From positions 2,206 to 66,205 of IMG/VR virus record IMGVR_UViG_3300006654_000661: DNA of 64,000 nt. One strand, 5' to 3'. Under the pieces are notes generated by a model. It was not told where the DNA came from and searched no databases. It saw nothing but the letters and a program-made list of their open reading frames with translations. Position numbers and translations under genes: made by a program. Positions 1 through 56,511 of the stretch are shown one piece after another; positions within the stretch are counted from its first letter, which is position 1; every line of letters begins with the position of its first letter. This DNA comes from a virus (taxonomy: Duplodnaviria > Caudoviricetes).

Positions 1-3000
1 CTTCTCTTTAAAGCGGTCTAATCGTTTACGCAATTGCTTCAACTGTTTTTGCGTGCGCTTGGCGTCATCAGATAATCGTAGCAAAGCTTTATTCTCTTTC
101 CTGAACTCAAGCCGTTCCTTTCCTTTTAATGATTCAAGCTCAGCTTGTAACGTTTCCACTTCATCAAGTCTTTCGTAGAAAGTATTGCTGTCACCGTGAT
201 CCGTTGTCTCGCCATAAAAACGGCGAATGAATGGTGTTCTTGATGGTTCGAACTCACCTTGCGCACCACGCGTTGCTGTTTCTGCAGTGTTAAGAACAAA
301 GCGAGAAGCACCACTACCGATATATTCAAGCATGTAGCGAACGGTTTCAGGGTGAACGTCAATCAAGCCACTTTGATATTCACTACCGCCAGTGCCTTTA
401 TTTAACCCCATAGCTACTTGCTTATAAAATTCATTGGTAGATTTGAACCCGCTACCAGCATCCGATTTTTTACTACCATAGTTTTCATTAGCTTCACTAT
501 AAATGGCGCTACCGAAAAAGTTGCTGTTAGTTGCCAGGTCAATGAACGGTTTACCGATTTGCGGCATGATAGTTTTAACGCCAGTTTCCAAAGCATCATT
601 ACCTTCAGACAATCCGATCGGAAGAAATGAGCCCATCACCGCTTTAACTAAGAAGCCTGCATTATCTGACACTTCGCCACCGCTAATAACTGACTCCGCT
701 GCCGTACCGAAATTAGCAAAAACGTTATAGCCGTAAGGCATTGGGAAAGTTACATACTCTTTACTACCTGGAAGCATTAAAACAAAATTACGCTCTTTTA
801 CATACTCCGGTACTTTATCCCAATAGCTTTCACCATCATCATCTTCACCAGCAATAAAGCGATTCATTAACGCCATACTAAAGCCAACGCCAGCCATAGC
901 AATGCCAGCCTTTTGAGCGAGGTTAAGCTTTCTCTCGCCATCTACCGTTTTGAATGTACCAATAGCACGCGCAAAGTTCGCGGTTCCTTGAATGCCAGCA
1001 TTAGCAAATAAGTAAAGGGAGTTTAACCACGTACCAGCTTGGCCTTTACGGTTAAAGTTAACCGTTAGATTTTTGGCTACTACTGCGGCTTGATGCCTGC
1101 TTATTCCTGCATCGATAGCGTTCTTGTAGACAGATAGGCGAATCGTGTTTTCAACTGCAGAGTTATAATCTTCGATAAACTTTAACGCCGCTTTACCATG
1201 CTTAATAAGACCGCCTTTACTTTGCAGCTTCATTAATTTTTGCAAGTCTTTGCTTTGCGTTTCAATATCCTTCATATCGAAGTAACCGGTTTTAGCACCG
1301 GCTTTTCTAAAGTCATCGAATATTTGCGACCATTCAGTATCAGTTCGGTTTTCCCGTAGCGCACGGCGAATACCAGCTAATGCTTTAGGCATATCACGTA
1401 AAACGTTTTTGGTTAGTGATTTTATGTCAGTGCTTTTTAACTTCCCATCGTCTACGTCACTTTCTGCCGCCATGTTATAAAGCGCGGTTTGAATATCTCG
1501 CGTAACGTTAGTGATCAAGAATTCAGGGTTTGCAGAGGTAGCCATCATTGACAAAAATCTGTTTACCGAGCCAAGCACCTGAGTAATTCTATTGCCATTA
1601 TCAACCCCAACATTTTTCATTTGCATGGCCAAAACGGGATCATCTAGCTTTATGTAATAGCTCATTCCATCGCGCTTGGTAGCGAACCATTCAGATTGTG
1701 GTTTATCAGATAACGCCGACATCTTTTCTTTAGACATTGGCATCATTTTAATTTTACCGTCCGGCCCTTTCTTCCTTTCTAATGGCCCTTCAGTAGTGTA
1801 AGCGCTCCATAGTTCAGGGTTCGGCGCCTCTTCAATCAAATTCAATAACGCGTTACCCACTTCATTTTTGTGACCGCGAGTAATGGCGCGTTGCGTATCA
1901 AGGTATGCGTGAAGCAAAGGGCTTTCAGCGCGAGACTTACGGCCAAGTGCGGAAATGCTTTCTTTTCCTTTAATGTTGAAACCCATTCCGGTTCCCTGGG
2001 GCTTTCCACCTTCGTCTTTTGCTTGCCCTTTTAATGGCACATAAAAGCGGTAGTTATCCTGAAAGCCTGAGAACGTTTCTTCATCAATAAGGCCTTGCTC
2101 AAACATTTGCTGTGTGCGCTCGTCTATCATTTCACGCACGCTGTTTTGCAATTCAGTGTAAACGCTGCGGCGAGGATCACGATTTACAGCATCGATAATT
2201 CGTCTTGCTTCGTCATCCGTCATACCTGAGCCAGCGGTCATTTCTTCATCCATGCTATGAATGTGAGCGTTACGCTCTGGCGCGTGCAAGGCATATAAAA
2301 ACAAGTCCAATTCTTCTTGCTTGATATTATGCTTTGCCATTTTTTCGGCCATGGGTTCAAGATACTTTTCAGCTAATAGTCTGAAATCTTCCTCTACTTT
2401 CCCATAGTAAAGCGACTCAATTCCGTAAACGTCTGCTGAATCAGAAGTGTCTATTCCAGCTTTTCGCACGGTATCTTGCGCACGCTTAACGCGGTTGAAT
2501 TTATCTTGAATAAAGCGTAGTGCGTTATCCGTCCAACTCTCTTCTGGCATAGTGAAAGGTGTAGCATCATCAGTTGTGCGGAACATGGCGGCGTCTTCAT
2601 TTTGCAATGGCTTACCGGTATATTTTGCCTTGCTACCAAATGGAATGAAGTAACTCGTGCCATTTTCATCGCTCATTTCAATTGCATCAAAATCTTGAGC
2701 AACGGCAATCTTGCCTCTTAAATTTTGAATTTCCCATGAAACCTCAGCATCGTCACCAGACAAGAAATCAATATCGTATTCACTTTGGGCTTGGTCGTAG
2801 AATGCTGCTTCTGTCAGCGCTTCTATTTCAGAGCCTTCAAGGTAAGAGTATTCTTCTTTTGTTGTCTCTAATGCTTTATCCCAATCTAAATCGCTTGTTT
2901 CTGCAACCTTTCCCTTTCTTGGGTAATAGGTGTGATGAAACCCTCCATTATTTAGTGCGCTTCCTTTCTCACCGGCCAAGGTGAATACGCCATCAAACAT

Positions 3001-6000
3001 ACCAAAAGGAATTGGCTTTGCTTTTATCTCACCATCAAAATCCCCATCTGACTCATGTGTCAATGGAAACCCTGTATCATAGCCTTGCCGCTCTAAATCC
3101 GCTTTATTATTTCCGTTCAAACTAAACACCGCCGCTTTATTATCCGTGCTTGCAGGGCCATTTTTCGCCGCCGCTCTTGCCTTTTTAAGCAGGTAGAATA
3201 AATCGCTATCAGATACTTTAGCAAGTTTAGCTAAACCTAAGTCGCGCAATTTCTGACGAATAAGCCCTACAATCTCTTTTGCCAAGCGTTTAACAGTTGG
3301 CTTATTGCTTTGCTGCATGTGCGCTAGAAGTTCATCCATCAGCACGCGGTTTTTCATTTCCTGCGGCATATTGGTGCCATCTAAACCATTGATGTATTTA
3401 TCTAGTTTAATGCCGTGGCGCTTGGCGGTTTCGCGCAATCCTTTAAGGCCACCATTGGCAACGAATAGCGAATTAAGCTTTTTGGTAATGTCATTGCCGA
3501 ATAGATTTTTAATGCCTAAGTGACCATAAGCCTCATGGAAAAGCGTTGTTTCCATATCGAGTGCGCTGGTATGCTGATCTAAAACTACATGGACCTTACC
3601 TTTATGGAATACACCTTTTACTTGATACTCTGCGCCTTGGGCTTTTGCTGCATCTTTTATTTCGCTAGGAAGATCATCATAAGAAGAAACAACCGAAACG
3701 TAATTCTTACCGGCACTACTGAGCCCCTTGAGGAAGCGGCCGACGATTTCATTTGCATTAGAACGACTAACGGCACTCGTGTTGGCGTTACTAGTGACAG
3801 TGCCAGCGTTGAGAGCGAATAAAGGCGGTTCAACATCAGAGTCAGCATCTTGAGGTTTATCGATAACTATTGTTTTTGAATTTACATTCGTTGAATTGAT
3901 AGCCTCTTTAAATGCACCTTCTGGTAATGGCGTTTCATCTGCGCCAATTTCGTCCAGCCATTCTCTAAACTGCTTATCTACTTTGTTTGAGCGCTCACCG
4001 GCCATGCTACTTGTAACAGCAACCAATCTACCGCCAGGCTTTAAGAATCGATACGCATGTGCAACGTGTCGCGCCTCTTGTCCTTTGGAAAAAGGTGGGT
4101 TCATTATGATGCGGTCATAATCTGCACTTGGGTTCATGGTAAGGAAGTCAGCACTGGTAGGGCGATAACCTTGCTCGGTCAAATATTCGCGTAAACCGTT
4201 TGCCAGTTCGTTAGTGTCAACATTGTCTTTGCCAACTACCTCGGCGGCAGCATCAGCCAAGCTACCCACACCGGCGCTAGGCTCAAATACACTCATGCCC
4301 TCTTCAATCTCGGCAAGTTCCATCACTTGCTTTGCCACAATAGGCGTAGAGTTAAAGAAGTCGTTTTCTTTGTACTGGCCTTGAAACTTAGAGAGCTCTA
4401 TTTGCTTTTTGAGTTTATTGCTTCTCTTTGCAGGCTGCACGCTGCGGGTAATAGCGTCATATTCAAGCAATGCCGCACGCAACATAGGTGTTGAGACAAT
4501 ACCCATACGCTGCAGGCGGTTAAAGTCTTTGGCCACTTCTTCATAATAAGCGTTTTCAGAATTAGCCTGTATAAACTCTTTGAATTTACCGAAGTGTTTA
4601 TGGTTGGCAATATACATATCACCGCGACCATCTTTTTGCTTTCTCATTTCCGCTTCAGCATCAGCAAGCAACTTTTTACCTGCCATTGTATAGCCTTTGG
4701 TTTCGGCCATTTTGCTGGCTACACGCTTCACCATATCAGGGTACATGCGAGTGAGCGGGTATTCTGCCGAACGTACTTTTTGTTCAGGCGTGACGCCTTC
4801 TTTCCATTTAAGACCGCCAGCCACGCCGCCTTCGCGCTTGGTTTCAACTAAATCCTTGTCAGCATAGAGGCGTAATCTATTCCATGATGATGCAAGCAAA
4901 TCGCGCTCAGTGCCGTTTGATAGCTTGGTTAGGTATTTGGCCGTTCCATCCTTGATAGCATTCGCCAATGCGCGTAATTCTTTCGCCTTAGCTAGCTCGG
5001 CCTCTACACTTTCCATTGCGTAACCGGCTTCTCTAGCACGCTTGGCTGTGTTAGTTTTTCTGCTTGCGCCTAAAGATTCATTAGCACGCTCTTCAATCCT
5101 GTCGGCTAATTCTTCTAGGCTTGCGGTTTTATCCTTGGCTACTTTCGTTTTCTCTACGCTTTCACCTTCAAGCACTTTGAGGAATTCGCTTCTAGCATCT
5201 TCAGTTCTAAATTGAAAGCCAGGTATTGCACCTTGCTTATTGTATGCAGAGTAATAGCCGCCAAGCTGCTTTGATTTGGTGTTGAGCTCGGTATACAAAT
5301 CACGGTCTACGCGATCAGCCAGTGACACAATGAATAACTCATGCCCTTTCTTGCTGTGTGTTGACTCGTGTAATTCGTAATTAACCTCACCGTCTACGGC
5401 GCTTATCTGCTTGGTTGCTCTTGCTTCTTGTTCTGCCAATCTTTCATCAGCATGAAGCCTGTCGTATTGCGCCCACTGTTCTGGTGTAAAGTCTTTTTGT
5501 AGCCCGTTTCTAGCCGCGTTCCTGAAATCTTCAAGCGTTTGCGGGTTACTCATGCCTTCAATTCGCTGTCTACGCTCGTTGAATGCTTCGTCAACTTTAT
5601 CCTTACGCGCTTTCATGTTTTCGCGTAGCTGTTCATCGGTTAGATTTTTAAGCTTTTCCTTGGTCGATTCATACCAAGATTTACCACCAAAGTCCGTGAT
5701 TGAAATCACGCCACTGTCAGAAGTAACGAAACCAAACTCCGTTACCATTTGACGGTAAGAGGCATTTACCAGTTGATCCTTTTTCATGCCTGAGTCATGC
5801 CAGCCGCGATAAAATTTATCTTTTATCTGCGCCACGGTATGCGAGGCAATGTGTTCTTTCATTTCTGCTTCGTTATCAATGACCACATCAAGTGCGGCCC
5901 TTGCTTCATCAGCCGTTATGGTTTCATCAGCATTGCGGTACTTATCCCAAAACGCTTGTCTTTGCTCCGTTGGAGATAGGTTTTTAGTTTTTTGATTGGG

Positions 6001-9000
6001 TTTTGATTGTGCTGGTTTTGCTTGCTCGCCTTCAAGAATAGTTTTTGCGCGTTTAGCCAGGTTAGACCGTGCACCAACCACTTTCACTAGGCCACCCATT
6101 TTATTGAGCGCCTTATCTACCGATTGAACCAAGTCTTTTGCGTCAGCTTCGCTCATGCCATCAAGAATGGTTTCCATTTTCTTGTTTGCGAATTTGCGAG
6201 TTTCTTTTGCGAGTTCGTTTCGGCCATCAGTAAGATCAGCGGCAATGGTGCCAGCCAAGCGGGTAAACTCGTTTCTATCTTTTACCTTTTTGCTGTCCGC
6301 TTCCTTTTGAGCCTTTTGCTTTCTCTGCGCGTCATTCATTACCGCTTCGACTGAAGAGGCAATTCTCTTGCGCATACGATCAAGTTTATCGACTTCGGTG
6401 GTAAAGGCCTTGTTATTCTTCTCGGCTCGCTTGTTGTATTTATTGGTGTCTAAATTATCGCGCCCTGAAACAATCCAGCTTGGGTTGTTTTGGCTTCGTA
6501 TAGACTCACGGCGAGTGAATTGCGCTTGCTCATTCAGATAGTTTTCAGTTAACTCTTTCGCCTTTGCCTTGCGTTCTGGCGTATCGAGTAAACCTTTTTC
6601 ATTAAGCTCATTAAGAATGTCATCAGCCGCGCTATTGAGTTCAGCATTAAAGTCACGACCACGCCCTAAGTGTGTAGTGCGGTTGTAGGCTTCTTCAACG
6701 TCTTTGCTAATAGAGGGAACGGTAACGGTTACGCCGTGGGTTTCTTTTTTGGTTTCGGTGGGTTCGGCAAGTTGAGCCTTTCTTGCATTTGCAGCGGCTT
6801 CAACTTCCCTAATAAAGTCAACGCTACTTGTTTTATCTTGCTTGACTTCTTGAATTACATTATCAAAATCCGTGTCACTTTTAAGGTACTTGATTCGAGA
6901 TAGCAACCCTTTGCGATAAGCTTCGACTTGCTTCTTTTGCGTTTCAGGGTTTACAGTTGAAACGTTGCTTACTTCGCTTTCTGTGCCTGCTTGCCCAGTA
7001 TGTTCAGGGCTAACTGTTTCTAACTCACCGCCAAACATATCATTTTGACTTTCATCAGCAATGCTTTCAGGCTGTTCAACTTCGACCTGCTCTTGAGGTT
7101 TAGTGTCTAATGGGCTTGCACCTATTTCGTTTCTAATCTCTGAAACTAGCTCCGGTTTAGTTTCCCAGCTATCCCATGCTTTAGCTTGCGTTGATATTTC
7201 TTCAATCCGCTTATTTAAGCTTTTAGGATCCTTAACGTTAACGCCTTCCGCTTTTGCTAGTTTAGGGTTTTTAGCTGCGCCTCGAATAGCATTTAACCTA
7301 GTGCGCAATTCTCTTTGCTTGGTGGCTGCAACCTTTGCCATTTCCTCAGCTTCCCGCATTGCTGAATCATCAAAGCCAAATAAGTCGCCTGTTTGCTGTT
7401 CTTGACCGCTATCCTTGCGCATTGATTTAACTGCGCGAATAAGGTTTTCTGCGTAGGTAATGGAGCGCTGATCATTCATCAGCGCCTTTAATGCTAGTGA
7501 TTGTAACGCTTCATCTTTGGGGGCGGTTTCGGCTATTCGCTCTGCGGCTTGTCCTGTAATTCTGCCACTCCGTTGCGCTTCAACTGTCTCGCGAGTAGCA
7601 CTAGACGCGATTCTGTAGGCCGTTCTCCCGATTGCACGGTCGAGTAAGCCGAGTTCTTTTGCATCCTCTTCTGTGAGTTTGTCTTGTTGGAATAGTTCGA
7701 CATAATCCTCTACCTGCCCTTTATCTTCACGAATATTAAGTATAGCATCGGTACGCTTTCCGTCCTCCGCTGTAAAGCCTTCATCCTCATAATGATACTG
7801 TGCGGGGATATTGTCTACCCCTGCTCGCTTAGCTAAATCAAATCTGTGACGCCCAGTAATAATTTCTTTATCACCGTTTGACCGAACCCATACTTGAATT
7901 GGGGCCATGCCTACTGGGTCATATTTTCCGGTTAGCGGCTCAACAACACCATCTTGATCTGCGCCTGACTTGAACTGAGGAATGTCATCAGATAATTTCA
8001 ACTCTGATAACGGTGCTTCAATAACAACTTTTTCATGTGGGTTTAGTGGATTGTCATTTGTGTCTCGTCGTGCTGCCAAAGAAGTATTCTCTGCATCGCC
8101 TGTTCCAATTGCTCCGTTTGCACTCTCACGTAACCGTCCTCCATTATCTCCCCGTACATCGCGTGGTAATGAAGTTCCAGCGCTTCCCACTTGCTGATCA
8201 CTTGGTTGTTCAATGCTTCCTGTATCCAATCCAACATTGCTATTCTCCGATACCCAGCCATAGCCGCCATTTACTTCAATGACCTGCGGGTTTAATCCCT
8301 GCTCTTTGGCTTGACGAAATTCCTTTGTCAGTTGTGCGGCTCTGCGCCCACTGAACGGATCGCCATTGCGTTTAACTTGAACGTTTCTACCATCTTCACC
8401 AAAAATAATATCTTTTTGCGGTAAAGCTCGGTTAGACACTTCGCCAACATTATCCGCAAATTCTTGCGCCTGCTGCATGGGCCTGCCATCTTCAGCAATA
8501 ATCGTATCGGCGCGATTAGGCAATCCGCGAGGGCGTTCAAACTCACCATCTATAATAGGCGCCTCTAATACTTGGCCGACTGGCACGGAACGCGGTGGTT
8601 CGCGGTACTGCTCATACTCTCCATCAAAAGTATATGGCTGCATTTGCCCACGGTAAGGCATATCGTTTTGACCATACTGCCAATTAGGTTGCGTATCGCC
8701 TGCGGTTTCGCCAGGAATAACTTCAACTTCGTTACCGGTAATAGCCTGCTCTTGTGCTGGCCCAATATCCGCAAACGGGTCTGGTGTCTCAAGCGCTTCA
8801 TTGATGCCTTGTGTAAGGTCGGTTTCTTCCATTTCGCTAATGGTGGGTTTCTCACCGCGATAACGGTTGTAGGCTGATTGACCTGCTTCGGTTCCCCCAC
8901 GAATAGTACCGCCAACTGCTGCACCGCCCACAAATGCTTCGTCTAGGTTTTCCAGTTCATCAAGCGATTTACCGCCACCCCATTGCGCTAATGCTTCTTG

Positions 9001-9627
9001 TCCGGTTTCCGTAATACCTTCTGTTAAAGCAGATTGACCAACACGCTTAATAACGTTTTTGCCTTCACCACCAAGTATTCGACCAATGGAAGATTCCACC
9101 CCAAGACGCTCTAAGCCTGCTTGACCAAAACCTGAAACGGTTGCACGCCATGGCTGTTTATTATCTTCTGGCTGCGTTTCGTATGCCTCGTTAGACATAC
9201 CGCCACCCATAGCAAACAAGCCAAGCGGGTTTAATGCTGCGGCCATCATAGGCACTGACTGTGCAGTCATTTCGCCAACATAACTACCCACATCACTGAA
9301 TGAATCAATATCTTTGTATGACGCTACTGAAGGTGTATAAGCTTGCTGTTCGCGAATGTTAGTTTGTATACCTTCATCTGCCCACTTCGATAGCGAGCCA
9401 CCTTGCCCAATAGTACGGCCAATAGCGTTTGTTTGCTCTTCTTTGGGTACGCCTACATCAGTAAAGCCTTTTACAGCGCGATAGCCTAACTCTTGTAATT
9501 TATCTACGCCTGCGCCCAATGCAGGCATAATGCCCGACTCGCCTTGTTGCGCATCGGGTAAGTCTGCAAAAGGGTCGCTTTGTGTATCAGGAAGATCAGC
9601 AAATGGGTTGTTCTGGTCAATAGCCAT
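1..9627 (-). CDS. Giant polyvalent virion/ejection protein (DarB-like; ParB-like, N6-MTase, zincin peptidase, AcrIF11-like ART, LPD38-like); >3209 aa, runs off the window
   Basis: ATG at 9627 (MAIDQNNPFADLPD). No ORF in this frame is listed in the track, consistent with no stop in the window. Hand translation gives ITGRHRF (~7840), FEPSAGVG and NPPF (~4280, ~4095), HEAYGH (~3530), WDKVPEYVKERNF and PFIRRFYGE (~800, ~220). Confidence 0.92.
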   Translation of the reverse strand, partial: MAIDQNNPFADLPDTQSDPFADLPDAQQGESGIMPALGAGVDKLQELGYRAVKGFTDVGVPKEEQTNAIGRTIGQGGSLSKWADEGIQTNIREQQAYTPSVASYKDIDSFSDVGSYVGEMTAQSVPMMAAALNPLGLFAMGGGMSNEAYETQPEDNKQPWRATVSGFGQAGLERLGVESSIGRILGGEGKNVIKRVGQSALTEGITETGQEALAQWGGGKSLDELENLDEAFVGGAAVGGTIRGGTEAGQSAYNRYRGEKPTISEMEETDLTQGINEALETPDPFADIGPAQEQAITGNEVEVIPGETAGDTQPNWQYGQNDMPYRGQMQPYTFDGEYEQYREPPRSVPVGQVLEAPIIDGEFERPRGLPNRADTIIAEDGRPMQQAQEFADNVGEVSNRALPQKDIIFGEDGRNVQVKRNGDPFSGRRAAQLTKEFRQAKEQGLNPQVIEVNGGYGWVSENSNVGLDTGSIEQPSDQQVGSAGTSLPRDVRGDNGGRLRESANGAIGTGDAENTSLAARRDTNDNPLNPHEKVVIEAPLSELKLSDDIPQFKSGADQDGVVEPLTGKYDPVGMAPIQVWVRSNGDKEIITGRHRFDLAKRAGVDNIPAQYHYEDEGFTAEDGKRTDAILNIREDKGQVEDYVELFQQDKLTEEDAKELGLLDRAIGRTAYRIASSATRETVEAQRSGRITGQAAERIAETAPKDEALQSLALKALMNDQRSITYAENLIRAVKSMRKDSGQEQQTGDLFGFDDSAMREAEEMAKVAATKQRELRTRLNAIRGAAKNPKLAKAEGVNVKDPKSLNKRIEEISTQAKAWDSWETKPELVSEIRNEIGASPLDTKPQEQVEVEQPESIADESQNDMFGGELETVSPEHTGQAGTESEVSNVSTVNPETQKKQVEAYRKGLLSRIKYLKSDTDFDNVIQEVKQDKTSSVDFIREVEAAANARKAQLAEPTETKKETHGVTVTVPSISKDVEEAYNRTTHLGRGRDFNAELNSAADDILNELNEKGLLDTPERKAKAKELTENYLNEQAQFTRRESIRSQNNPSWIVSGRDNLDTNKYNKRAEKNNKAFTTEVDKLDRMRKRIASSVEAVMNDAQRKQKAQKEADSKKVKDRNEFTRLAGTIAADLTDGRNELAKETRKFANKKMETILDGMSEADAKDLVQSVDKALNKMGGLVKVVGARSNLAKRAKTILEGEQAKPAQSKPNQKTKNLSPTEQRQAFWDKYRNADETITADEARAALDVVIDNEAEMKEHIASHTVAQIKDKFYRGWHDSGMKKDQLVNASYRQMVTEFGFVTSDSGVISITDFGGKSWYESTKEKLKNLTDEQLRENMKARKDKVDEAFNERRQRIEGMSNPQTLEDFRNAARNGLQKDFTPEQWAQYDRLHADERLAEQEARATKQISAVDGEVNYELHESTHSKKGHELFIVSLADRVDRDLYTELNTKSKQLGGYYSAYNKQGAIPGFQFRTEDARSEFLKVLEGESVEKTKVAKDKTASLEELADRIEERANESLGASRKTNTAKRAREAGYAMESVEAELAKAKELRALANAIKDGTAKYLTKLSNGTERDLLASSWNRLRLYADKDLVETKREGGVAGGLKWKEGVTPEQKVRSAEYPLTRMYPDMVKRVASKMAETKGYTMAGKKLLADAEAEMRKQKDGRGDMYIANHKHFGKFKEFIQANSENAYYEEVAKDFNRLQRMGIVSTPMLRAALLEYDAITRSVQPAKRSNKLKKQIELSKFQGQYKENDFFNSTPIVAKQVMELAEIEEGMSVFEPSAGVGSLADAAAEVVGKDNVDTNELANGLREYLTEQGYRPTSADFLTMNPSADYDRIIMNPPFSKGQEARHVAHAYRFLKPGGRLVAVTSSMAGERSNKVDKQFREWLDEIGADETPLPEGAFKEAINSTNVNSKTIVIDKPQDADSDVEPPLFALNAGTVTSNANTSAVSRSNANEIVGRFLKGLSSAGKNYVSVVSSYDDLPSEIKDAAKAQGAEYQVKGVFHKGKVHVVLDQHTSALDMETTLFHEAYGHLGIKNLFGNDITKKLNSLFVANGGLKGLRETAKRHGIKLDKYINGLDGTNMPQEMKNRVLMDELLAHMQQSNKPTVKRLAKEIVGLIRQKLRDLGLAKLAKVSDSDLFYLLKKARAAAKNGPASTDNKAAVFSLNGNNKADLERQGYDTGFPLTHESDGDFDGEIKAKPIPFGMFDGVFTLAGEKGSALNNGGFHHTYYPRKGKVAETSDLDWDKALETTKEEYSYLEGSEIEALTEAAFYDQAQSEYDIDFLSGDDAEVSWEIQNLRGKIAVAQDFDAIEMSDENGTSYFIPFGSKAKYTGKPLQNEDAAMFRTTDDATPFTMPEESWTDNALRFIQDKFNRVKRAQDTVRKAGIDTSDSADVYGIESLYYGKVEEDFRLLAEKYLEPMAEKMAKHNIKQEELDLFLYALHAPERNAHIHSMDEEMTAGSGMTDDEARRIIDAVNRDPRRSVYTELQNSVREMIDERTQQMFEQGLIDEETFSGFQDNYRFYVPLKGQAKDEGGKPQGTGMGFNIKGKESISALGRKSRAESPLLHAYLDTQRAITRGHKNEVGNALLNLIEEAPNPELWSAYTTEGPLERKKGPDGKIKMMPMSKEKMSALSDKPQSEWFATKRDGMSYYIKLDDPVLAMQMKNVGVDNGNRITQVLGSVNRFLSMMATSANPEFLITNVTRDIQTALYNMAAESDVDDGKLKSTDIKSLTKNVLRDMPKALAGIRRALRENRTDTEWSQIFDDFRKAGAKTGYFDMKDIETQSKDLQKLMKLQSKGGLIKHGKAALKFIEDYNSAVENTIRLSVYKNAIDAGISRHQAAVVAKNLTVNFNRKGQAGTWLNSLYLFANAGIQGTANFARAIGTFKTVDGERKLNLAQKAGIAMAGVGFSMALMNRFIAGEDDDGESYWDKVPEYVKERNFVLMLPGSKEYVTFPMPYGYNVFANFGTAAESVISGGEVSDNAGFLVKAVMGSFLPIGLSEGNDALETGVKTIMPQIGKPFIDLATNSNFFGSAIYSEANENYGSKKSDAGSGFKSTNEFYKQVAMGLNKGTGGSEYQSGLIDVHPETVRYMLEYIGSGASRFVLNTAETATRGAQGEFEPSRTPFIRRFYGETTDHGDSNTFYERLDEVETLQAELESLKGKERLEFRKENKALLRLSDDAKRTQKQLKQLRKRLDRFKEK

Positions 9628-12994: not shown

Positions 12995-13328
12995 GCGCTA
13001 GGGTGAATGTAATTTCGATAGGCTGATCAAGTTCTAATTCAAACTCGCCCGTATCATCCATTACGAATTGCTCGTTTTCTGCTGTGATAATGGTGCCTTC
13101 AGGCACATTAGAAAGCGTAATATCGTTGCCGTTCCTTGACGTTTGCACCGAAAACTGATGCTTAGAAGTGATTTCACCATTAACAACAATCTGCGTTTTA
13201 GGGTTAGACACTTCCATTAATCTGCCTTCACCCGGCATTAGGTTGGGTAGCTTTGAAGAAGAGCAGGACGCGAAGCGCAATATCCTGCCCGTTGCTAAAT
13301 TGTATTCTGTGTAATTAACGTTTGGCAC
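12954..13328 (-). CDS. Tail-associated hypothetical protein
   Basis: 124 aa ORF directly after tail tip gene. Confidence 0.55.
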   Translation of the reverse strand: MPNVNYTEYNLATGRILRFASCSSSKLPNLMPGEGRLMEVSNPKTQIVVNGEITSKHQFSVQTSRNGNDITLSNVPEGTIITAENEQFVMDDTGEFELELDQPIEITFTLAHELYETKVLYVES

Positions 13329-16957: not shown

Positions 16958-17400
16958 AATACGGGCTCTAGCACTGGCACAATGTAGACTTGACCACCAA
17001 AGACCGGTGGCAATTTGTAACCTGCGGCATTCCATACAACAAATTGATGGCGTAGCGAGCCCTTGTGCTTTTTGTCTAAAACATCGCTGCTTACATGGAT
17101 CATAAACTGCGAACCTAAAGCCGATATGCCTTCATTTAACTTTATTGAAGCAACGGTTTTCCCTCTGGTGGTCGCTATCCTGTACTCTGCATCAGAAAAA
17201 AGGCTTGGGTTTAAAACCAAGCCTTTTTCGTCTAATACTTCACACAATATGAAGTTATCGGAATACTGATAGAGTGATACGGGGTCGCGATAAATATCAT
17301 TGAATGTACCAATGTCACTTGATATTTCGATGTAATTAACGGTTTCATCAAATGCGTAGCTGCTCGCTACATTCCAGTTGCCTGATACATTCCAAGTCAT
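16954..17400 (-). CDS. Hypothetical virion protein
   Basis: 148 aa, coupled to both neighbours. Confidence 0.55.
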   Translation of the reverse strand: MTWNVSGNWNVASSYAFDETVNYIEISSDIGTFNDIYRDPVSLYQYSDNFILCEVLDEKGLVLNPSLFSDAEYRIATTRGKTVASIKLNEGISALGSQFMIHVSSDVLDKKHKGSLRHQFVVWNAAGYKLPPVFGGQVYIVPVLEPVL

Positions 17401-26749: not shown

Positions 26750-27682
26750 TTAACCTAGACGCATTACGCTGTGACCAAGTTGCTCAGGAAGCAACACATC
26801 AAAGCCGTACACAAACAATGAACGCACTAAATCACCGAAGTCATTCGGGTTTTTAAGGGTTTCCATTTCTGTGATTTGCGCAGCGAATGAAAGGGCCGAC
26901 TTGTGACCAAACAGAACGTCATACGCACCATTCGTTACACGAATATTACGTGAAGAGTAGATATGTAAGCGGTCAATCATGCCGATTTTGCCAGAGCGAA
27001 GCGTAGAGTTACCGTCACCGGTTAAGCTCGCGTCTTTCAATTCTGATGTTTTGATACGTGCGCACATTGAAGGCGGTAGAGCCACGTAACGATCTTCATC
27101 AGGCGTATCAGTTTCATCAAGACACACACCAAAACGCTCAACCAATACATCGATGATGTTTGATTTTGTTACATCAAGGGGTGCGGCTGCTGTACCCAAG
27201 TCAATAGAGCCAGTGTCTTTACCTGCTGCTGCACCGGCGTTTACCGCGCCTGCACCTGCGTAGATAGAGCCAAGGATATTGGCATCAACACGGCGTTTCA
27301 TCTTCATGCCACCGTCTTGCGTGAAAGTATCCATCAGATTAATGTCTGATTGGTATTCATCAACGCTGTTTACTTTGAACGCGAAGTAGTGGCCTTGGTC
27401 GATAGCTAACGACACTGGCGCACTTTCTGGCTGTTCGTAGTTCAGGTTTTGGCCTTTCTCGTAGTCACTGATAGTAATATCAGGAACCGTGCGGATATTA
27501 ACCTTGTCACCCACTGACTTAATCTCACCTTCGTAGTCAGTATTAGCGATTTCCATGTAAATACAGTTCTCGTAATACTTCGTAAGAAGTTTCTTAGACC
27601 AAATTTCAGGGATGAAACCTGAATTGTTGTTTGCACCAGTATTTGAATAGTTAACACTACCGGAAGCGACTGGATAACCCAT
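26750..27682 (-). CDS. Major capsid protein
   Basis: FIPEIWSKKL, NTDYEGEI..GDKVNI, DFGDLVRSLFVYG motifs; follows scaffold. Confidence 0.88.
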   Translation of the reverse strand: MGYPVASGSVNYSNTGANNNSGFIPEIWSKKLLTKYYENCIYMEIANTDYEGEIKSVGDKVNIRTVPDITISDYEKGQNLNYEQPESAPVSLAIDQGHYFAFKVNSVDEYQSDINLMDTFTQDGGMKMKRRVDANILGSIYAGAGAVNAGAAAGKDTGSIDLGTAAAPLDVTKSNIIDVLVERFGVCLDETDTPDEDRYVALPPSMCARIKTSELKDASLTGDGNSTLRSGKIGMIDRLHIYSSRNIRVTNGAYDVLFGHKSALSFAAQITEMETLKNPNDFGDLVRSLFVYGFDVLLPEQLGHSVMRLG

Positions 27683-27712
27683 TTTTATTACTCCTAAATT
27701 GCCTGCTGCGGC

Positions 27713-28690
27713 TTAGTCAATTACATTGCCTGCAGCGTGTGCGGCGAAAAGTTTTCGCTCCCACTCTTTAAACTCGCCTTCGGTTAGCTTGCCTTTGTTG
27801 TAGTCATCGTAAAGACGGTTAATTTGCTCTTTCGTCCACACGTTATCGTCACCCATGGCATCACCAGGGGCGCGACTTGATACATCAACTTGACTTGCTA
27901 GAGGGTTGTTTGAAAAGTTGGAACGCTCTTGTGCTTTGAAGGCTTTGAAAAAGAATGCGGTACGATTAATATCGCCGCGACTAAACGCGCCATTCATCAA
28001 CGTGTTTCGTTCCTCGCCACTTGCTTCATCAATACCTTTTAGCCATTCGTGAAACATCGGGTCGGTGTTAACTTGCTCGAAATCAATGTTGCTCTTACTC
28101 AGTTCGGCATTTAATTCACGCATGCGCATATTGCCTGCGGTTTCATTAGTGGCCTGTTCTGTTTGTGTAAGCTTTGATTGGAGTGAGTTGACCAGATTCG
28201 ATAAACGCTGTATCTCGGCAGAGGTGCCCGAATTACCAGCGCTGGCTTGTTCTGCTACTGCGCGTGCGAAATCTTCGCCGTACTCGTCAACCAAGGTTTT
28301 ATTTAGCTTTACTTCGCTGCTAGGTTTGGCGCTCGACTGTTGCTGTTGCTCTAATTGTTGCTTCAGTTGAGTGTTTTCAGTCTCTAAAGACTGTAAGCGG
28401 TGTTGTAAGCTAGGGTCTTGGCTGCGCTGTTGAGCTTCACGTAAATCATCGTTTAGCTTTTTAGTATCAGCGTTGTACTTGCCTTGCAGTACGCGGTATT
28501 TATGTTCCCACGTTTGTTCAGAGTCCGATTGCGGCGGCTGCGGCGGCTGCTGTTCGGGTGTTCTGTTCTCTTGTGGTTGCTGTGGCTCGTCAGTGTTCCC
28601 AGTTTCGGGAGTTGACGCTTTTTGTTGCTGTTGACGAATTAACTCGTTTGCTTCTTCATCTGCATTTTGCAGTGCCTGGGGTAAAGCCAT
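27713..28690 (-). CDS. Capsid scaffolding protein
   Basis: Start re-called at MALPQ (28690, GAGGA RBS); WEHKYRVLQGKY coiled-coil; directly upstream of capsid. Confidence 0.75.
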   Translation of the reverse strand: MALPQALQNADEEANELIRQQQQKASTPETGNTDEPQQPQENRTPEQQPPQPPQSDSEQTWEHKYRVLQGKYNADTKKLNDDLREAQQRSQDPSLQHRLQSLETENTQLKQQLEQQQQSSAKPSSEVKLNKTLVDEYGEDFARAVAEQASAGNSGTSAEIQRLSNLVNSLQSKLTQTEQATNETAGNMRMRELNAELSKSNIDFEQVNTDPMFHEWLKGIDEASGEERNTLMNGAFSRGDINRTAFFFKAFKAQERSNFSNNPLASQVDVSSRAPGDAMGDDNVWTKEQINRLYDDYNKGKLTEGEFKEWERKLFAAHAAGNVID

Positions 28691-28822
28691 TTGTCTTATC
28701 CTCGGTGAGTCAGTATTCGGGAGCCCGAAGGTATTCCCACTGGTGTTCACTTTTGTTTAGATATAAAAAAAGGCCGCTATTAAGCGACCTTTGTTGTTTC
28801 CCTTTCGGGAGTAAAGAAACTG

Positions 28823-29062
28823 CTATTCGAACTGAGCCAACGTGGTATTCGGATCGTGTAGCAATTCCAATAATTCTTCGAGCGTGTTTATAGCGCCTTG
28901 GCTTTTAAACATTTGCTGCGTATCTACTGCGGTTTTTAACGCCTCAACATTCTGAGAAACCAACATTTCAGCAATGCTTACTATGTGGTCGTATTGGTCA
29001 GGCTTGGTATTTTTTAGAAATACCAGTGACTTTAGTTGTTGAACCGTCAATCCCGTTATCAT
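28823..29062 (-). CDS. Small hypothetical protein after portal
   Basis: 79 aa, overlaps portal stop. Confidence 0.6.
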   Translation of the reverse strand: MITGLTVQQLKSLVFLKNTKPDQYDHIVSIAEMLVSQNVEALKTAVDTQQMFKSQGAINTLEELLELLHDPNTTLAQFE

Positions 29063-31044
29063 TGTGGCGGCTGGCCTTGTGCGGCTTGCTGCTGTGCGGC
29101 TGCCACTTCATTCATTAGCTTTTGGCGCAATTCATCTTCGGTAGGCACAAAACGATTAGCCGGTAAATCTGCGGCTTTCGCTGCGCTTTCTAGCAATACT
29201 CTTCGACCTTCTTGACCAATGATTTGCATATCTACTGGATTGTTAGTGGTGGCTAGGAACTCAGCTTGACGCATTGCCGTGGCTTCTTTGTGCATTAGCG
29301 CATCAGAGCCACGCGCTTTCACTTGCGCATCACCTTTGATTTCTTCAGGCACATCGGGATCAATCATGGCGCTGGTGTAAAGATTAGAAACAAGGGGCTC
29401 AATAACGTGAATATCTACGCCTCGTACCACTTCTTTCATGGACTTGCTGGCCGCATTCATCAGCATAGATAAACCGGATGCGGTTTTACCTGCGCCTGCT
29501 GCTTGGTCTGAACCATACGCATAAGCAGGAATACCGCTCTTATCATCGGCGTAACGCTCAAAGCGCTCATACACACTAAGCAACTCATTAGCTTTAATGT
29601 CAGGACTAAAGAAGTTGATACCGGGCTTACTTTGCCCTGCACCGTTTACGCCTTTGCTACTGAATTGCCATATCTTGCCTGGGTAAATGCTAGTAATGTT
29701 TGCGCCCTGTGGTATCTGTGCCAAATCGATAGCCACTTGAGGTTGCGCACCAATGGCCATGTTATTAATCAGGGCTCGCATTGTGGCGTTAGCTGAATCC
29801 TGAATGTCAGCAATAATCTCGGCTAGTGCTTCACCGCAAAATGAATTAGGCAAACTTCTGAATGTTGACTTGTAATAGCCAGGCTTGCCGTTAGGGTCAG
29901 GGTTGACCGTAGCTTTAATGGTGTAGTTACCCACGACAACAACGGTGACAGGGTACTCGGTGTAAGGATCATCTATTTGATGTTCGATACCCCAGTCTAT
30001 TAACTGCTTGCCCTGCATCCATCCGGTGAACTCTAAACCGTCTATGTTTTCATAGTTTGAATGCGTAAAGCTTCGCTTGCCTTCTAATCGTTCGCGCTCT
30101 GAATCATTAAACACCCACTGGCGTAGGCCATGGCGATAATCATTCAATGCCATCATGATATTTCTACCGTTATAGCCTTTAGAGCCTCGCATCGATGTCA
30201 GCGTTGAAGGTGTAAACCTCACATGCTCAATGTGCCAGTGATCACCGATATTAGTAGTTGACGGTGAAGGGTAGAAATCAAACGGGCTCACGCGTCTAAA
30301 TTGACGGACCAACTTATCTTCAATCTTTGGTGCATGTTTACCGGTGCGATTATCCTTAGCCCACTTAACACGCTTTTGTACGCGATAGATTGGGCCTTTA
30401 AGAATGGCGAATGGATAAGTCACCAAATCATCTAAGAACGCATCAAACTCGTCACGGAAACCGCCTTCAACCATCATATCTTCAATGTGGTCGGCCATTT
30501 TTTCCATGCGTGCCGCGGCTTCTTCGTTAATTTCTGACTTAATGCGCTCTCCGTGCTGTTGTAGCACCTGTTCAGACATTGCCATGACTTCACGCGGGTC
30601 GCCTGCCGTTTGCATTGCGTTTTGAATAGCGATGGCAATCATGCTTTGTGCAATTTCTGGCGGCAATTCAGGAACCGGTGTGGCTTCAATGTGAAAGGGG
30701 CGGTCATTACTGGACGCAAACAAGTCACTGAGCCAAGCTTTTGCGGCATGTATCTTGGTGCCGGTCAGGTTCATATAAATTGAACTGCCACCTTGGGCTT
30801 TTATTTCTGATAGCTTGCGAGCGGAATACTCGCCCTTACGTCTGCGTAGGCATTCCGTTAGCCGGTCTGAAATATCCATTTTGTGGTTTTTGGCCGTAGC
30901 CCAACATTTAAGAACATGCTGCGCCAAGTTGTCAGTAATGCGGGAGCTTTGCACCTCGCGATCAGCTTTAATCTTTTCTTCTTTGGCTTCTGTCTGTTCT
31001 CTTTGTAGCTGATCAGCGCCTTTAACTTCCAACATTATGCCCAA
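29059..31044 (-). CDS. Portal protein
   Basis: 661 aa after TerL; RVSPFDFYPSP, TASGLSMLM motifs of P22-like portals. Confidence 0.88.
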   Translation of the reverse strand: MGIMLEVKGADQLQREQTEAKEEKIKADREVQSSRITDNLAQHVLKCWATAKNHKMDISDRLTECLRRRKGEYSARKLSEIKAQGGSSIYMNLTGTKIHAAKAWLSDLFASSNDRPFHIEATPVPELPPEIAQSMIAIAIQNAMQTAGDPREVMAMSEQVLQQHGERIKSEINEEAAARMEKMADHIEDMMVEGGFRDEFDAFLDDLVTYPFAILKGPIYRVQKRVKWAKDNRTGKHAPKIEDKLVRQFRRVSPFDFYPSPSTTNIGDHWHIEHVRFTPSTLTSMRGSKGYNGRNIMMALNDYRHGLRQWVFNDSERERLEGKRSFTHSNYENIDGLEFTGWMQGKQLIDWGIEHQIDDPYTEYPVTVVVVGNYTIKATVNPDPNGKPGYYKSTFRSLPNSFCGEALAEIIADIQDSANATMRALINNMAIGAQPQVAIDLAQIPQGANITSIYPGKIWQFSSKGVNGAGQSKPGINFFSPDIKANELLSVYERFERYADDKSGIPAYAYGSDQAAGAGKTASGLSMLMNAASKSMKEVVRGVDIHVIEPLVSNLYTSAMIDPDVPEEIKGDAQVKARGSDALMHKEATAMRQAEFLATTNNPVDMQIIGQEGRRVLLESAAKAADLPANRFVPTEDELRQKLMNEVAAAQQQAAQGQPPQ

Positions 31045-32549
31045 CCTCCTGAACTCTGTACTTGGACTTCTGCAAAGCCAGTGTGAAATGATTCGTTCAT
31101 GCGTTCTCTTATTTCGTTTAGCGCTACGGCAAATGTTCTAAATGCGTCTGACGAGTGACTTGCTTCATCGTGTACCGGTTGTGACTTCCATACGCCGTGC
31201 TTATCATCCCAATCTTTTCGGTAAGCAGATAAACCAGAGAAACCTTTTTCTGTCTTAACTTCATCAAACCAACACAAGGGAAGCACTGTTCTCACCGCTT
31301 CAATGCCATCGGCAATGGATAATTTAGGCGCAGTAATAAAGTCGATACCTAATGATTGAGCCGTTTCTAGTCGAGATTTACCCGTACCTAGCTCTCTAAC
31401 AGCAATATCATGCGGCGCTACGTGAAATCCGTAGTTGTATCGAAGCTTCTCCCTCAGTTCATCAAGCACAGACTTGTAGAATGCGAGCCCTTCACCGGAG
31501 TTTTGATAGTAATTGATGACGCGATACTCACGCCCGACCTGCTGGATAAACCAAATACACATCGTATCCGACATACCCAAATCCCAAAACGTGTGAACTA
31601 AAGCGCTTGGCTCTAGTGGTACGCTGGTTAGTCGGCCATCAGAATAAATGTCATTAATCTGGCGATGGTAGTAAGCGCCTTCAATGGACTGTTCGAAAGC
31701 CTCTTCCGGTGTAGCAGGATATTCACGGCGAATATCTGCACCAAGCGACTTCTCTTTTGAGGTGTACCAAGCCAACTGGCCATTGGTTAAGCGTATTGCG
31801 TATTTCTGCTCAAGCTGCTCTTTGTACTCAAGCAACCTATCAGGAACAATAACGCTTTCACCTTCGAGCGTGTAATCAGGGTTTTCATGCCAGGGGAAGA
31901 AAAACAATTCCCACTCCATTTGCCCAGGCTCCATACCTTTACGCTGCCGGTTCAATGCTTCTTGGCAATAATCGTAGAAGTAACCCACTTTCCCTTCGGC
32001 GGTAGATTCGATAGTGATAACACAATCTTTTGAAACCGCTTCAAACGCACCGGTAACAATCTCTTTTGCTTTATGTGGGTACTTGGCGCAGATTTTACCG
32101 AACTCACTGATATGCAAATACGTGAGCGTTCCACCACGAAACGAGGTGCCTACTGCAATAGAAGAGCCGTTAACGAAAACTAATTCACCGGCCCTTGCTA
32201 TTTCCGCTGGCATCATCCCTCGAATGGTTGGCGGTAATGCGTTATACGCAAACTCTATCTTTTCACGGAAGAGTCTTATCGAATCGTCACGGCTATGCGT
32301 GATAACGGCGCACTTTGTATTGTTGTTAAACAAGCACGCGTCTAACATAAATATCATTGTGAAAGTCGTGAAGCCAAGCTGCCTGGCTTTCAGAATAATA
32401 TTTCGGTAGTGCATCCCTTCGAAGAACACCATTTGCGCTTCGTTGAGCTTAAACTTTATCTTCTTACCGTTTTTATCAGTAATGAAGTACAGGTTATTGA
32501 TGCGCCAACGCCAATTACTGAGGTTAGCTTTTAGTTCTTCCTCAGTCAT
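31035..32549 (-). CDS. terL: Terminase large subunit
   Basis: ILKARQLGFTT Walker A, LHISEFG Walker B, ESTAEG, WDLGMSD nuclease motif. Confidence 0.95.
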   Translation of the reverse strand: MTEEELKANLSNWRWRINNLYFITDKNGKKIKFKLNEAQMVFFEGMHYRNIILKARQLGFTTFTMIFMLDACLFNNNTKCAVITHSRDDSIRLFREKIEFAYNALPPTIRGMMPAEIARAGELVFVNGSSIAVGTSFRGGTLTYLHISEFGKICAKYPHKAKEIVTGAFEAVSKDCVITIESTAEGKVGYFYDYCQEALNRQRKGMEPGQMEWELFFFPWHENPDYTLEGESVIVPDRLLEYKEQLEQKYAIRLTNGQLAWYTSKEKSLGADIRREYPATPEEAFEQSIEGAYYHRQINDIYSDGRLTSVPLEPSALVHTFWDLGMSDTMCIWFIQQVGREYRVINYYQNSGEGLAFYKSVLDELREKLRYNYGFHVAPHDIAVRELGTGKSRLETAQSLGIDFITAPKLSIADGIEAVRTVLPLCWFDEVKTEKGFSGLSAYRKDWDDKHGVWKSQPVHDEASHSSDAFRTFAVALNEIRERMNESFHTGFAEVQVQSSGGWA

Positions 32550-53235: not shown

Positions 53236-53433
53236 GTGATGAACATAGTGCCTTTAAAAGCATATTGCGCAATTAGCCATGAAACCAAAGCTGCTGTGGA
53301 AGCGAGAATCGAACGCGGAATTTGGATTGAAGGTGTACACTATTACAAAATAAACAAAGTTCGCGAACGATGGATCGACATTAAGGCGGTGGAAGAATGG
53401 GCGAGAAACGGAGGAAGCTGCCGCGCGGCGTAA
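53236..53433 (+). CDS. xis: Excisionase
   Basis: RIERGIWIEGVHYYK..RWIDIKAVEEW, overlapping int. Confidence 0.85.
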   Translation: MMNIVPLKAYCAISHETKAAVEARIERGIWIEGVHYYKINKVRERWIDIKAVEEWARNGGSCRAA

Positions 53434-56486: not shown

Positions 56487-56511
56487 TGAACAAAACAAAC
56501 TAGAGACAAAT

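Follow-up and report, generated by a model that had tools for sequence, protein, structure and literature searches.

What is an enzyme of the AcrIF11 anti-CRISPR type doing inside a giant protein of a phage structural module? AcrIF11, represented by the solved proteins Pae1 (PDB 6KYF) and Pae2 (8DWQ), is a stand-alone phage or plasmid anti-CRISPR mono-ADP-ribosyltransferase (ART) that modifies N250 of Cas8f. The original prediction for the stretch of DNA analyzed here (64,000 nt, hereafter the window) placed an AcrIF11-like ART domain at 2610-3070, embedded in a virion protein. It suggested that such an enzyme might arrive with the genome as an anti-CRISPR, or else modify another defense target, and proposed an HMM and structure comparison with AcrIF11 and a search for type I-F CRISPR in the host genus.

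The AcrIF11-family domain and its conserved residues

The peptides named in that prediction are all encoded by the minus strand and share a single frame, that of the open reading frame 1..9627: LTHESDGDF (residues 2189-2197, window 3037-3063), FGMFDGVF (2208-2215), SALNNG (2223-2228), SWEIQNLRGK (2297-2306), and SDENGTSYFIP (2319-2329, window 2641-2673). The predicted range almost equals the envelope of the family HMM (2608-3078). The features of the domain are as follows.

1..9627, minus strand: giant polyvalent-protein ORF, 3209 aa within the window
2608..3078, minus strand: AcrIF11-family ART domain, residues 2184-2340
3055..3057, minus strand: His2191 of LTHES, aligned with the NAD-site His of Pae1 (H7) and Pae2 (H20)
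2983..2997, minus strand: F2211-D-G2213-V-F2215 strand motif, F2215 aligned with Pae1 F26
2713..2727, minus strand: Q2301-N-L-R2304-G2305 helix motif (family consensus QRLRG)
2665..2670, minus strand: Asp2320-Glu2321 of MSDENGT, aligned with catalytic D115 of Pae1 and D146/E147 of Pae2

The NCBIfam model NF052490, "AcrIF11 family anti-CRISPR ADP-ribosyltransferase," matched the excised domain with an E value of 4.3e-16 (60.1 bits) and the 3209-aa protein with 53 bits, both above its curated cut-off of 50 bits, and phrog_11282 also matched (E 4e-17). When a 197-aa stretch was compared with 177,635 PDB sequences using phmmer, the two AcrIF11 structures were recovered (6KYF, E 2.4e-5; 8DWQ, E 5.4e-5), while the third-best match reached only E 0.48. 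A profile built from the domain and 42 small relatives matched both structures over their full length (3.2e-29 and 2.1e-16, respectively). The AlphaFold2 model of the domain (pLDDT 85.3, pTM 0.81), used as a Foldseek query against the PDB, ranked 6KYF first (E 2.1e-6, target TM 0.72) and 8DWQ second (E 5.4e-3), followed by MbcT and exotoxin A domain III, both of which are ARTs, at E values of at least 0.4. Like AcrIF11, the predicted fold has a beta-core with a helical insert. The proposed comparison with AcrIF11 therefore yielded significant profile and predicted-fold matches to both solved proteins, and the predicted presence of such a domain in the giant protein was borne out. Sequence, profile, and predicted fold together confirm residues 2184-2340 as a true member of the AcrIF11 ART family, with a likeness to AcrIF11 far above chance.

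We then compared the domain with 143 family domains. The column of His2191 holds His in 131/143 of them; the G and second F of the F-D-G-V-F motif, the Q and G of the helix motif, and the D and E columns are invariant (143/143), and the helix-motif R is found in 141/143. Every column that is invariant or nearly so (H, F, G, F, Q, R, G, D, E, G) is intact here, giving the His...F-x-G-x-F...Q-x-x-R-G...D-E signature of AcrIF11. The signature includes the residues required in mutagenesis: activity of Pae2 is reported as abolished in an H20A/Y46A mutant (bioRxiv 10.1101/2024.08.26.609590), and D115A and D146A/E147A mutants as inactive (PMC8120803; bioRxiv 10.1101/2024.08.26.609590). As judged from the alignment, the His and Asp-Glu that these mutants identify as necessary are kept in the domain.

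One position of Pae1 is not conserved. The second His of its H-F-H-D set (H37, in "SHG") is Asn2227 here, and this replacement, along with the fact that the domain is not a stand-alone protein, could point to a domain that has decayed and lost its activity, and that the giant protein retains as a spacer or structural element. However, the same His is absent from 68/143 relatives (it is present in 75/143, and in 7/26 giant proteins) and, as counted on the alignment, from the validated Pae2, which has Ala in this column; for this reason, we did not take H37 as defining. Given also the intact conserved columns and the confident fold prediction, we regard an inactive remnant as very improbable.

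The carrier protein and its relatives

In contrast to AcrIF11, which is encoded by an early gene of 130-170 aa in an anti-CRISPR locus, the domain is embedded in a structural-module protein that measures 3238 aa when its frame is followed through the provirus record, 29 codons lying beyond the left edge of the window. Three further regions were recognized in the carrier.

3967..4221, minus strand: SAM-dependent methyltransferase core with an NPPF motif at residues 1843-1846 (Pfam MTS, E 5.8e-6; PHROG DNA methyltransferase families)
214..2556, minus strand: conserved C-terminal module, residues 2358-3138 (phrog_616, 6e-213)
229-822, minus strand: LPD38, residues 2936-3133, inside the C-terminal module (E 1.8e-38, 133 bits)

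Several unrelated effector domains (LPD38, the MTS methyltransferase, and the AcrIF11-type ART) are thus joined in one giant polypeptide, which is the mark of a polyvalent protein; ParB_N gave a weak match (E 0.035). No release peptidase was recognizable in the giant protein, as "HEAYGH" does not conform to HExxH and PF18818 found no match. With its LPD38 and methyltransferase, the carrier is a polyvalent protein of the type described by Iyer, Burroughs, Anand, de Souza, and Aravind (2017, PMC5512222), in which such domains and an ART occur in proteins encoded among late structural genes; that article describes LPD38 as restricted to phage-type proteins and predicts that these proteins are packed and injected.

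The surrounding genes are consistent with this assignment.

13315-15306, minus strand: tail fiber (phrog_496, phrog_511, together with the internal virion protein)
15299-17035, minus strand: internal virion protein (phrog_496, phrog_511, together with the tail fiber)
26750-27682, minus strand: major head protein
29059-31044, minus strand: portal/adaptor
31035-32549, minus strand: large terminase, at the start of the structural module (26750..32549)
53397..54614, plus strand: prophage tyrosine integrase (Pfam Phage_integrase, Arm-DNA-bind_2)
61655..64000, plus strand: host TonB-dependent receptor gene in the flank (Pfam)

The tail fiber and internal virion protein genes lie upstream of the giant gene in the same operon direction, and the giant gene is the last of the terminase, portal, head, internal virion protein, and tail fiber block, which places it among the late structural genes. 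The flanking receptor is 93-94% identical to those of Alteromonas sp. S005, A. portus, and Alteromonas sp. 4B03, identifying the host as Alteromonas. The element is an integrated, podovirus-like Alteromonas prophage.

Trees of the family split into two clades with a support of 99 in both FastTree and IQ-TREE, and the domain falls in clade A. The clade B profile outscored the clade A profile on 6KYF (112.7 versus 40.6 bits) and 8DWQ (67 versus 39 bits), although the two profiles are unequal in depth (37 and 9 rows, respectively), and we therefore consider the validated AcrIF11 proteins to be of the B type. On these scores, the domain belongs to the sister clade of that nearest to both validated enzymes.

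Clade A is well supported and is dominated by embedded forms. Among 153 family-bearing proteins, 26 exceed 1000 aa, and a scan of the other giants (17/25) found LPD38 (5), InPase (4), ART-PolyVal (4), PBECR5 (3), LPD22 (3), and MuF_C (2). The ART directly precedes the conserved C-terminal module in a 3229-aa IMG/VR ORF and in the protein P0012 as well, and in P0007 the neighboring modules follow a different order. These arrangements indicate that the carrier is a modular mosaic, with the ART as one cargo module. A tblastn search found the domain in only 7/50,697 phage records, where the annotated feature beneath every match is a "hypothetical protein" (in Moraxella phage Mcat24, a 471-nt CDS). 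Besides small acr genes, the AcrIF11 family includes modules that recur as cargo in giant proteins (26/153).

The ART of the polyvalent proteins described by Iyer et al. is ART-PolyVal (PF18760; H-Y-D, Tox-ART-HYD2 clade), whereas the one found here is of the AcrIF11 family, which the main-text sections drawn on here do not name (PMC5512222). An ART-PolyVal identity for our domain found no support: PF18760 gave no match at E values up to 10 in an hmmscan of the domain, nor did it match when the record was searched in six frames. ART-PolyVal-like domains show a distant likeness to the AcrIF11 family, seen as a 37-column C-terminal match in hhalign (probability 59.5%), as BFVD fold matches (E 2e-3 to 5e-3), and as ESM Atlas feature neighbors (0.92, with recognition below the threshold of the tool).

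Proposed packaging and delivery

The C-terminal 780 aa of the giant protein matched gp69 of Burkholderia phage JC1 (BLASTP, E 4e-54), and the C-terminal module is 41.6% identical to gp35 of Stx2 phage 86. By tblastn, the module occurs in 338 phage records, and it is common to the giants of Stx-converting, Vibrio, Ralstonia, and Burkholderia podophages. The "DarB-like antirestriction proteins" JC1 gp69 and Bcep22 gp75 have this module of approximately 800 aa and are likewise encoded after the tail fibers, and the giant "LPD5 domain-containing" proteins of Stx-converting podophages have the same module and gene position. Table 6 of the JC1 study lists gp69 among the proteins of virions purified on CsCl, identified by 51 unique peptides at a peptide coverage of 15.6% (PMC9144972).

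Because the giant gene closes the structural module and its product shares the C-terminal module with a virion-found protein, virion delivery is reasonable to infer. The giant protein is probably carried in the virus particle, in which case a finished enzyme that modifies the host may enter together with the phage DNA. However, BLASTP of the window protein aligned nothing in JC1 gp69 or Stx2 phage 86 gp35 with residues 2184-2340, and gp35 shares the C-terminal module only. Since JC1 gp69 lacks the ART, its presence in virions bears on the packaging of the ART-bearing part only by extrapolation.

Delivery of a pre-made ART is not a new idea: T4 Alt is the classical case, and Iyer et al. (PMC5512222) had already predicted it for the ARTs of polyvalent proteins. 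Alt is synthesized late and travels in the particle to act on host proteins at entry (PMC5512222, PMC9503650), as the present ART would. It differs in belonging to the R-S-E clade, with another active site, in being a separate protein, and in targeting RNA polymerase and other housekeeping proteins. Alternatively, the ART might never be delivered and instead serve within the cell that makes the phage, in late host takeover for instance, or modify phage components such as virion proteins. Not every phage ART is injected, T4 ModA and ModB being examples (PMC5512222), and packaging of the giant protein considered here is itself predicted. Nevertheless, the gene position, the LPD38 module common to a virion-found protein, and the polyvalent architecture all fit the injected class of Iyer et al., and we consider action confined to the producing cell improbable.

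We favor a reading, with a probability of roughly 0.6, in which the domain is an AcrIF11-family mono-ART cargo of a polyvalent protein that is made with the structural proteins, injected, and modifies a host protein. Residues 2184-2340 would be a catalytically competent mono-ADP-ribosyltransferase within the 3238-aa protein, produced by the integrated Alteromonas prophage along with its structural proteins. The giant protein would be packed into the capsid via its conserved C-terminal module and ejected with the DNA, and the ART, drawing on the NAD+ of the host, would then ADP-ribosylate a host protein ahead of any phage gene expression.

Type I-F CRISPR in Alteromonas and the candidate targets

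If the injected domain is a true type I-F anti-CRISPR, it would arrive pre-made and ADP-ribosylate Cas8f (Csy1). NF052490 is an equivalog model for anti-CRISPR function, and its match speaks for Cas8f as the target. The same can be said of the PDB searches, in which the two solved AcrIF11 proteins were the only significant sequence matches and the top two fold matches, and of the retained catalytic residues. On the other hand, the domain lies in clade A and the validated enzymes are of the B type (by profiles of 9 and 37 rows, respectively), and the least conserved part is the helical insert, for which a bioRxiv preprint by Chen et al. proposes a role in setting Csy specificity.

The search of the host genus, made on genomes of relatives since the source record holds the provirus only, had a divided outcome. 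Csy3 was found in 2/79 Alteromonas species genomes, both of which carry I-F arrays (23 and 30 repeats), so that a Csy target does exist in the genus. However, it was absent from the 5 nearest Alteromonas genomes (0/5) and is rarer in the genus than in the order (80/401; Fisher p = 2.8e-5), and none of the 31 distinct spacers of the two arrays matches the provirus record. In favor of a Csy target, the sole family member in the 401-genome order sample, a B-type solo gene, sits in a genome with Csy3 (n = 1). In sum, the family assignment favors the anti-CRISPR part of the original prediction, while the clade placement, the rarity of I-F in the genus, and the spacers do not. We judge a Csy-directed function of this domain possible but rather unlikely, and the hedge that the ART modifies another defense target is at least as likely. 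In this host, a non-Csy defense protein or other host protein would, by our estimate, be about twice as probable a target as Cas8f.

We found no paper joining AcrIF11 and polyvalent proteins in the literature searched. Both parts are known separately, and what is new here is an AcrIF11-type ART as a module of a polyvalent structural-module protein. To our knowledge, known anti-CRISPRs need to be expressed once the DNA has entered, so that CRISPR can act first, and an enzymatic inhibitor riding in with the DNA would alter the phage-CRISPR race. A bolder version, which we hold to be doubtful and a little less likely still than a Csy-directed function, is that this is the first AcrIF11-type anti-CRISPR or anti-defense enzyme packed in a virion and injected ready-made, striking Csy or another surveillance complex before transcription, with clade A as a lineage of such ARTs. 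If this is true, the injected enzyme would escape two limits of ordinary anti-CRISPRs, the delay until expression and the dependence on phage cooperation, and all of clade A would form a lineage of pre-delivered ARTs, swapped as cassettes among polyvalent proteins. Whatever its target, the domain ties together work on AcrIF11 and work on polyvalent virion proteins.

An AcrIF11-like domain in a giant prophage protein

The provirus record in IMG/VR comprises 66,205 bases and has a completeness rating of 100%. Its giant polyvalent-type protein carries the following features.

Window 1..9627, minus strand: giant ORF, a single open frame of 3238 codons in the full record, 3209 of them inside the window
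Window 2608-3078, minus strand: AcrIF11-type ADP-ribosyltransferase (ART) domain, residues 2184-2340 (family HMM envelope)
Window 214-2556, minus strand: conserved C-terminal module, residues 2358-3138, common to Stx-converting, Vibrio, Ralstonia, and Burkholderia podophages
Residues 2936-3133, minus strand: LPD38 domain (Pfam, 133 bits)

The original prediction had placed an AcrIF11-like ART inside a virion protein and cited five peptides in its support. All five were found in the frame of the giant ORF (residues 2189-2329), and the HMM envelope places the domain at residues 2184-2340 of the 3238-aa protein. Four independent routes, working from sequence and from a predicted structure, agreed that the domain is AcrIF11-like. 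When a 197-aa ART stretch was searched with phmmer against all PDB sequences, the sole significant matches were AcrF11 (PDB 6KYF, AcrIF11_Pae1; E 2.4e-5) and an “H3 protein” (PDB 8DWQ; E 5.4e-5), the next match having an E value of 0.48. The text of a preprint (10.1101/2024.08.26.609590) identifies 8DWQ as AcrIF11_Pae2; we refer to these two validated AcrIF11s as Pae1 and Pae2. Against the curated model NF052490 of NCBIfam (“AcrIF11 family anti-CRISPR ADP-ribosyltransferase”; cut-off 50), the domain reached 60.1 bits and the entire protein 53 bits. In the PDB, a profile built from the domain and 42 small relatives matched 6KYF (3.2e-29) and 8DWQ (2.1e-16), each over its full length. Finally, when an AlphaFold2 model from the same alignment (pLDDT 85.3, pTM 0.81) was compared with the PDB by Foldseek, 6KYF ranked first (E 2.1e-6, target TM 0.72) and 8DWQ second, ahead of two ART toxins, MbcT and exotoxin A domain III, whose E values were nonsignificant.

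Pfam assigned no family to the ART domain at E values up to 10, PF26151 is assigned to close relatives of the domain in the protein database, and megablast of the giant gene found nothing among phage records. A word-indexed homologue search found one and then four relatives, and a full HMMER search was required; among 1.84 billion representatives, it returned 180 clusters at E <=1e-3 and 52 at E <=1e-10.

Conservation of key columns in an alignment of 143 near-full domains (10 of 153 left out as partial)
G and second F of “FDGxF”: 143/143
Q and G of “QxxRG”: 143/143
D-E pair: 143/143
R of “QxxRG”: 141/143
First His: 131/143

The window protein keeps every key column (H2191, F2211, G2213, F2215, Q2301, R2304, G2305, D2320, and E2321). 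By the phmmer and profile alignments, H2191 aligns with Pae1 H7 and Pae2 H20, and D2320/E2321 align with Pae1 D115 and Pae2 D146/E147. Loss of activity is described in the texts of two studies, for the AcrIF11 mutant D115A (PMC8120803) and for the Pae2 mutants D146A/E147A and H20A/Y46A (10.1101/2024.08.26.609590). Where Pae1 has the second His of its “H-F-H-D” set, the window protein has Asn2227. This is no ground for calling the domain dead, since only 75 of the 143 relatives have His in that column and, by our own count on the profile alignment, the validated Pae2 has Ala.

Besides LPD38, which is among the domains treated in the text of Iyer et al. (PMC5512222), Pfam recognized a methyltransferase core in the giant protein, and about 1700 residues had no Pfam assignment. 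None of the models PF18760 (ART-PolyVal), PF18818 (MPTase-PolyVal), and PF18763 (ddrB-ParB) matched in the provirus record. The stretch “HRFDLAKRAG” (residues 594-601, window 7825-7848) gave only a weak ParB_N match (E 0.035), and “HEAYGH” (residues 2031-2036, window 3520-3537) was rejected as a zincin motif, being HExxxH rather than HExxH. HExxH is absent from the 400 aa upstream of the domain in the window protein and present in only 6 of the 29 relatives that have at least 300 residues upstream of theirs. By HExxH and PF18818, no release peptidase was recognized in the window protein.

The giant gene closes a block encoding terminase, portal, major head protein, internal virion protein, and tail fiber. 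Farther along, the prophage encodes a repressor, RecT/YqaJ, and an integrase; a second small integrative element follows, and after it a host TonB-dependent receptor gene. This receptor shares 93-94% identity with its counterparts in Alteromonas sp. S005, A. portus, and Alteromonas sp. 4B03, and the host is thus Alteromonas. A tblastn search with the C-terminal module (~850 aa) matched 338 phage records, including 101 from Vibrio, 31 from Ralstonia, and 10 from Burkholderia phages, as well as Stx-converting and Escherichia phages. Burkholderia phage JC1 gp69 aligns with the module (E 4e-54), and the text of PMC9144972 describes 51 unique gp69 peptides from virions purified with CsCl. From homology of the module to this virion-detected protein and from gene position, we infer, indirectly, that the window protein would be packed into the virion. 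Judged from the sequence, a hydrophobic stretch lies in the module around residues 2905-2925, and it may anchor the protein in the capsid core or, during ejection, in the membrane.

Two further observations concern the prophage itself. The second element spans window 54843-59238 and lies between the prophage integrase and the TonB receptor gene. It encodes a replication protein of the P2 GPA type (54843-56480) and a tyrosine integrase of its own (58174-59238), and could be a satellite or an island in tandem at the same attachment region; G+C falls to 0.36-0.37 at window 58-62 kb. In the early region, a 207-aa ORF (window 45054-45677) gave leucine-rich-repeat matches, both below or near Pfam cut-offs, an uncommon feature among phage early genes.

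Two clades and a movable domain

The 143 domains fell into two groups, with support of 99, in FastTree as well as in a quick run of IQ-TREE.

Domain clades by length of the protein
Clade A (query inside): 53 rows; >1000 aa, 15; 221-1000 aa, 30; <=220 aa, 8
Clade B: 90 rows; >1000 aa, 11; 221-1000 aa, 42; <=220 aa, 37

A clade A profile (small proteins plus the query) scored 40.6 bits on 6KYF and 39 bits on 8DWQ, and a clade B profile (small proteins) scored 112.7 and 67 bits, respectively. The two validated AcrIF11s are therefore B-type by a comparison of scores that is weakened by the unequal depth of the profiles (9 versus 37 rows). Among 68 IMG/VR loci, 10 were A-type, half of them (5) in frames of >1600 aa, and 58 were B-type, 37 of which lay in frames of <=220 aa. 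Embedded forms are present in clade B as well. The giant (>1000 aa) and solo states require at least 12 changes on the tree, so embedding and release happened repeatedly.

Four comparisons show the ART domain to be movable cargo. With Stx2 phage 86 gp35, the common part is the C-terminal module only (41.6% identity), and nothing aligned over the ART region. In a 3229-aa ORF on an IMG/VR contig, and likewise in the relative P0012, the ART stands immediately ahead of the C-terminal module, and in the relative P0007 the segments neighboring the ART occur in a different order. By length, the 153 family-bearing proteins comprise 26 of >1000 aa (the window protein included), 12 of 501-1000 aa, 62 of 221-500 aa, and 53 of <=220 aa; many of the mid-sized ones come from short contigs and so may be fragments. 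A Pfam scan of 17 of the 25 other giants found LPD38 (5), InPase (4), ART-PolyVal (4), PBECR5 (3), LPD22 (3), and MuF_C (2), and these accompanying domains are hallmarks of polyvalent proteins.

By tblastn, the domain occurs in only 7 of 50,697 phage records. The annotation under all seven matches is “hypothetical protein,” that of Moraxella phage Mcat24 being a 471-nt CDS. P0007 and its cluster members are publicly named “DEAD/DEAH box helicase family protein,” which does not mention the ART domain, and five other giants that we looked up had no public name.

Type I-F systems and the target

The substrate of AcrIF11 is the whole Csy complex, and to our knowledge Cas8f in the type I-F Csy complex is the sole known substrate of the family. 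The original prediction allowed for a type I-F target or another one and proposed a search of the host genus for a type I-F system. Csy3 (PF09615) was found in 2 of 79 Alteromonas species genomes and was absent from all 5 Alteromonas genomes nearest the host. By comparison, 80 of 401 sampled genomes of the order had Csy3 (Fisher p = 2.8e-5; the genus and order sets may overlap slightly). The arrays of the two Alteromonas type I-F loci are typical, with 30 and 23 repeats, and none of their 31 distinct spacers matched the provirus, the best agreement (16/18 bases) being at chance level. The domain itself was carried by 1 of the 401 order genomes and 0 of the 79 Alteromonas genomes, too few for an association test with type I-F; the lone carrier has a B-type solo gene and Csy3 in the same genome (n = 1). 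We consider Cas8f a doubtful target for the embedded domain and another host protein roughly twice as probable, at somewhat over one half.

The two arrays (L134:16339-18112 and L136:16843-18196, from two Alteromonas species) have an identical 28-nt repeat and many junction sequences in common, with their order kept, which suggests a locus recently shared or transferred.

Relation to ARTs of polyvalent proteins

ARTs in injected polyvalent proteins (2017; text of PMC5512222) and AcrIF11 as an ART (2020) were already known. A full-text literature search found no paper with both “AcrIF11” and “polyvalent,” and in a wider search no AcrIF11 paper was among the 12 best of 648 matches. The main text of Chen et al. 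(10.1101/2024.08.26.609590) contains neither “polyvalent” nor “fused,” and its supplementary tables and tree may include long homologues; the supplements of Chen et al. or Iyer et al. may likewise already contain AcrIF11 homologues in embedded form, or this domain by a different name.

The ART-PolyVal HMM (PF18760) matched neither the ART domain nor the record, and by sequence models the AcrIF11 family is distinct from ART-PolyVal and probably distantly akin to it. Three lines of evidence, each weak and partial, speak for kinship. Comparison of ART-PolyVal-like domains with the AcrIF11 family by hhalign covered 37 columns, over the last two strands, at a probability of 59.5%; a BFVD fold search placed an embedded relative first (2.1e-8) and ART-PolyVal-like proteins at E values of 2e-3 to 5e-3; and ESM Atlas feature neighbors with PF18760 scored 0.92, recognition lying under the tool's own threshold. 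A jackhmmer search seeded with an ART-PolyVal domain gathered AcrIF11-like domains, which we treated as possible profile drift and handled by a repeat with AcrIF11-like domains masked and by the profile-profile comparison. With this masking, an ART-PolyVal-like domain was found in 13 of the 153 family-bearing proteins.

The closest relatives of the domain, the metagenomic proteins P0004 (467 aa) and P0005 (437 aa), have an ART-PolyVal-type domain immediately before the AcrIF11-type domain and thus carry two different ARTs in tandem. The third-best Foldseek match of the ART model was chain B of PDB 9k3a, the cyanophage A4 pre-ejectosome (E 9e-3, probability 0.98, rmsd 8.4). The searched text of the accompanying paper names no ART and describes, in ejection protein gp28, an unassigned alpha+beta domain beside transglycosylase and M23 peptidase domains. 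If true, the presence of an ART-like fold in an ejectosome protein of solved structure would merit closer inspection.
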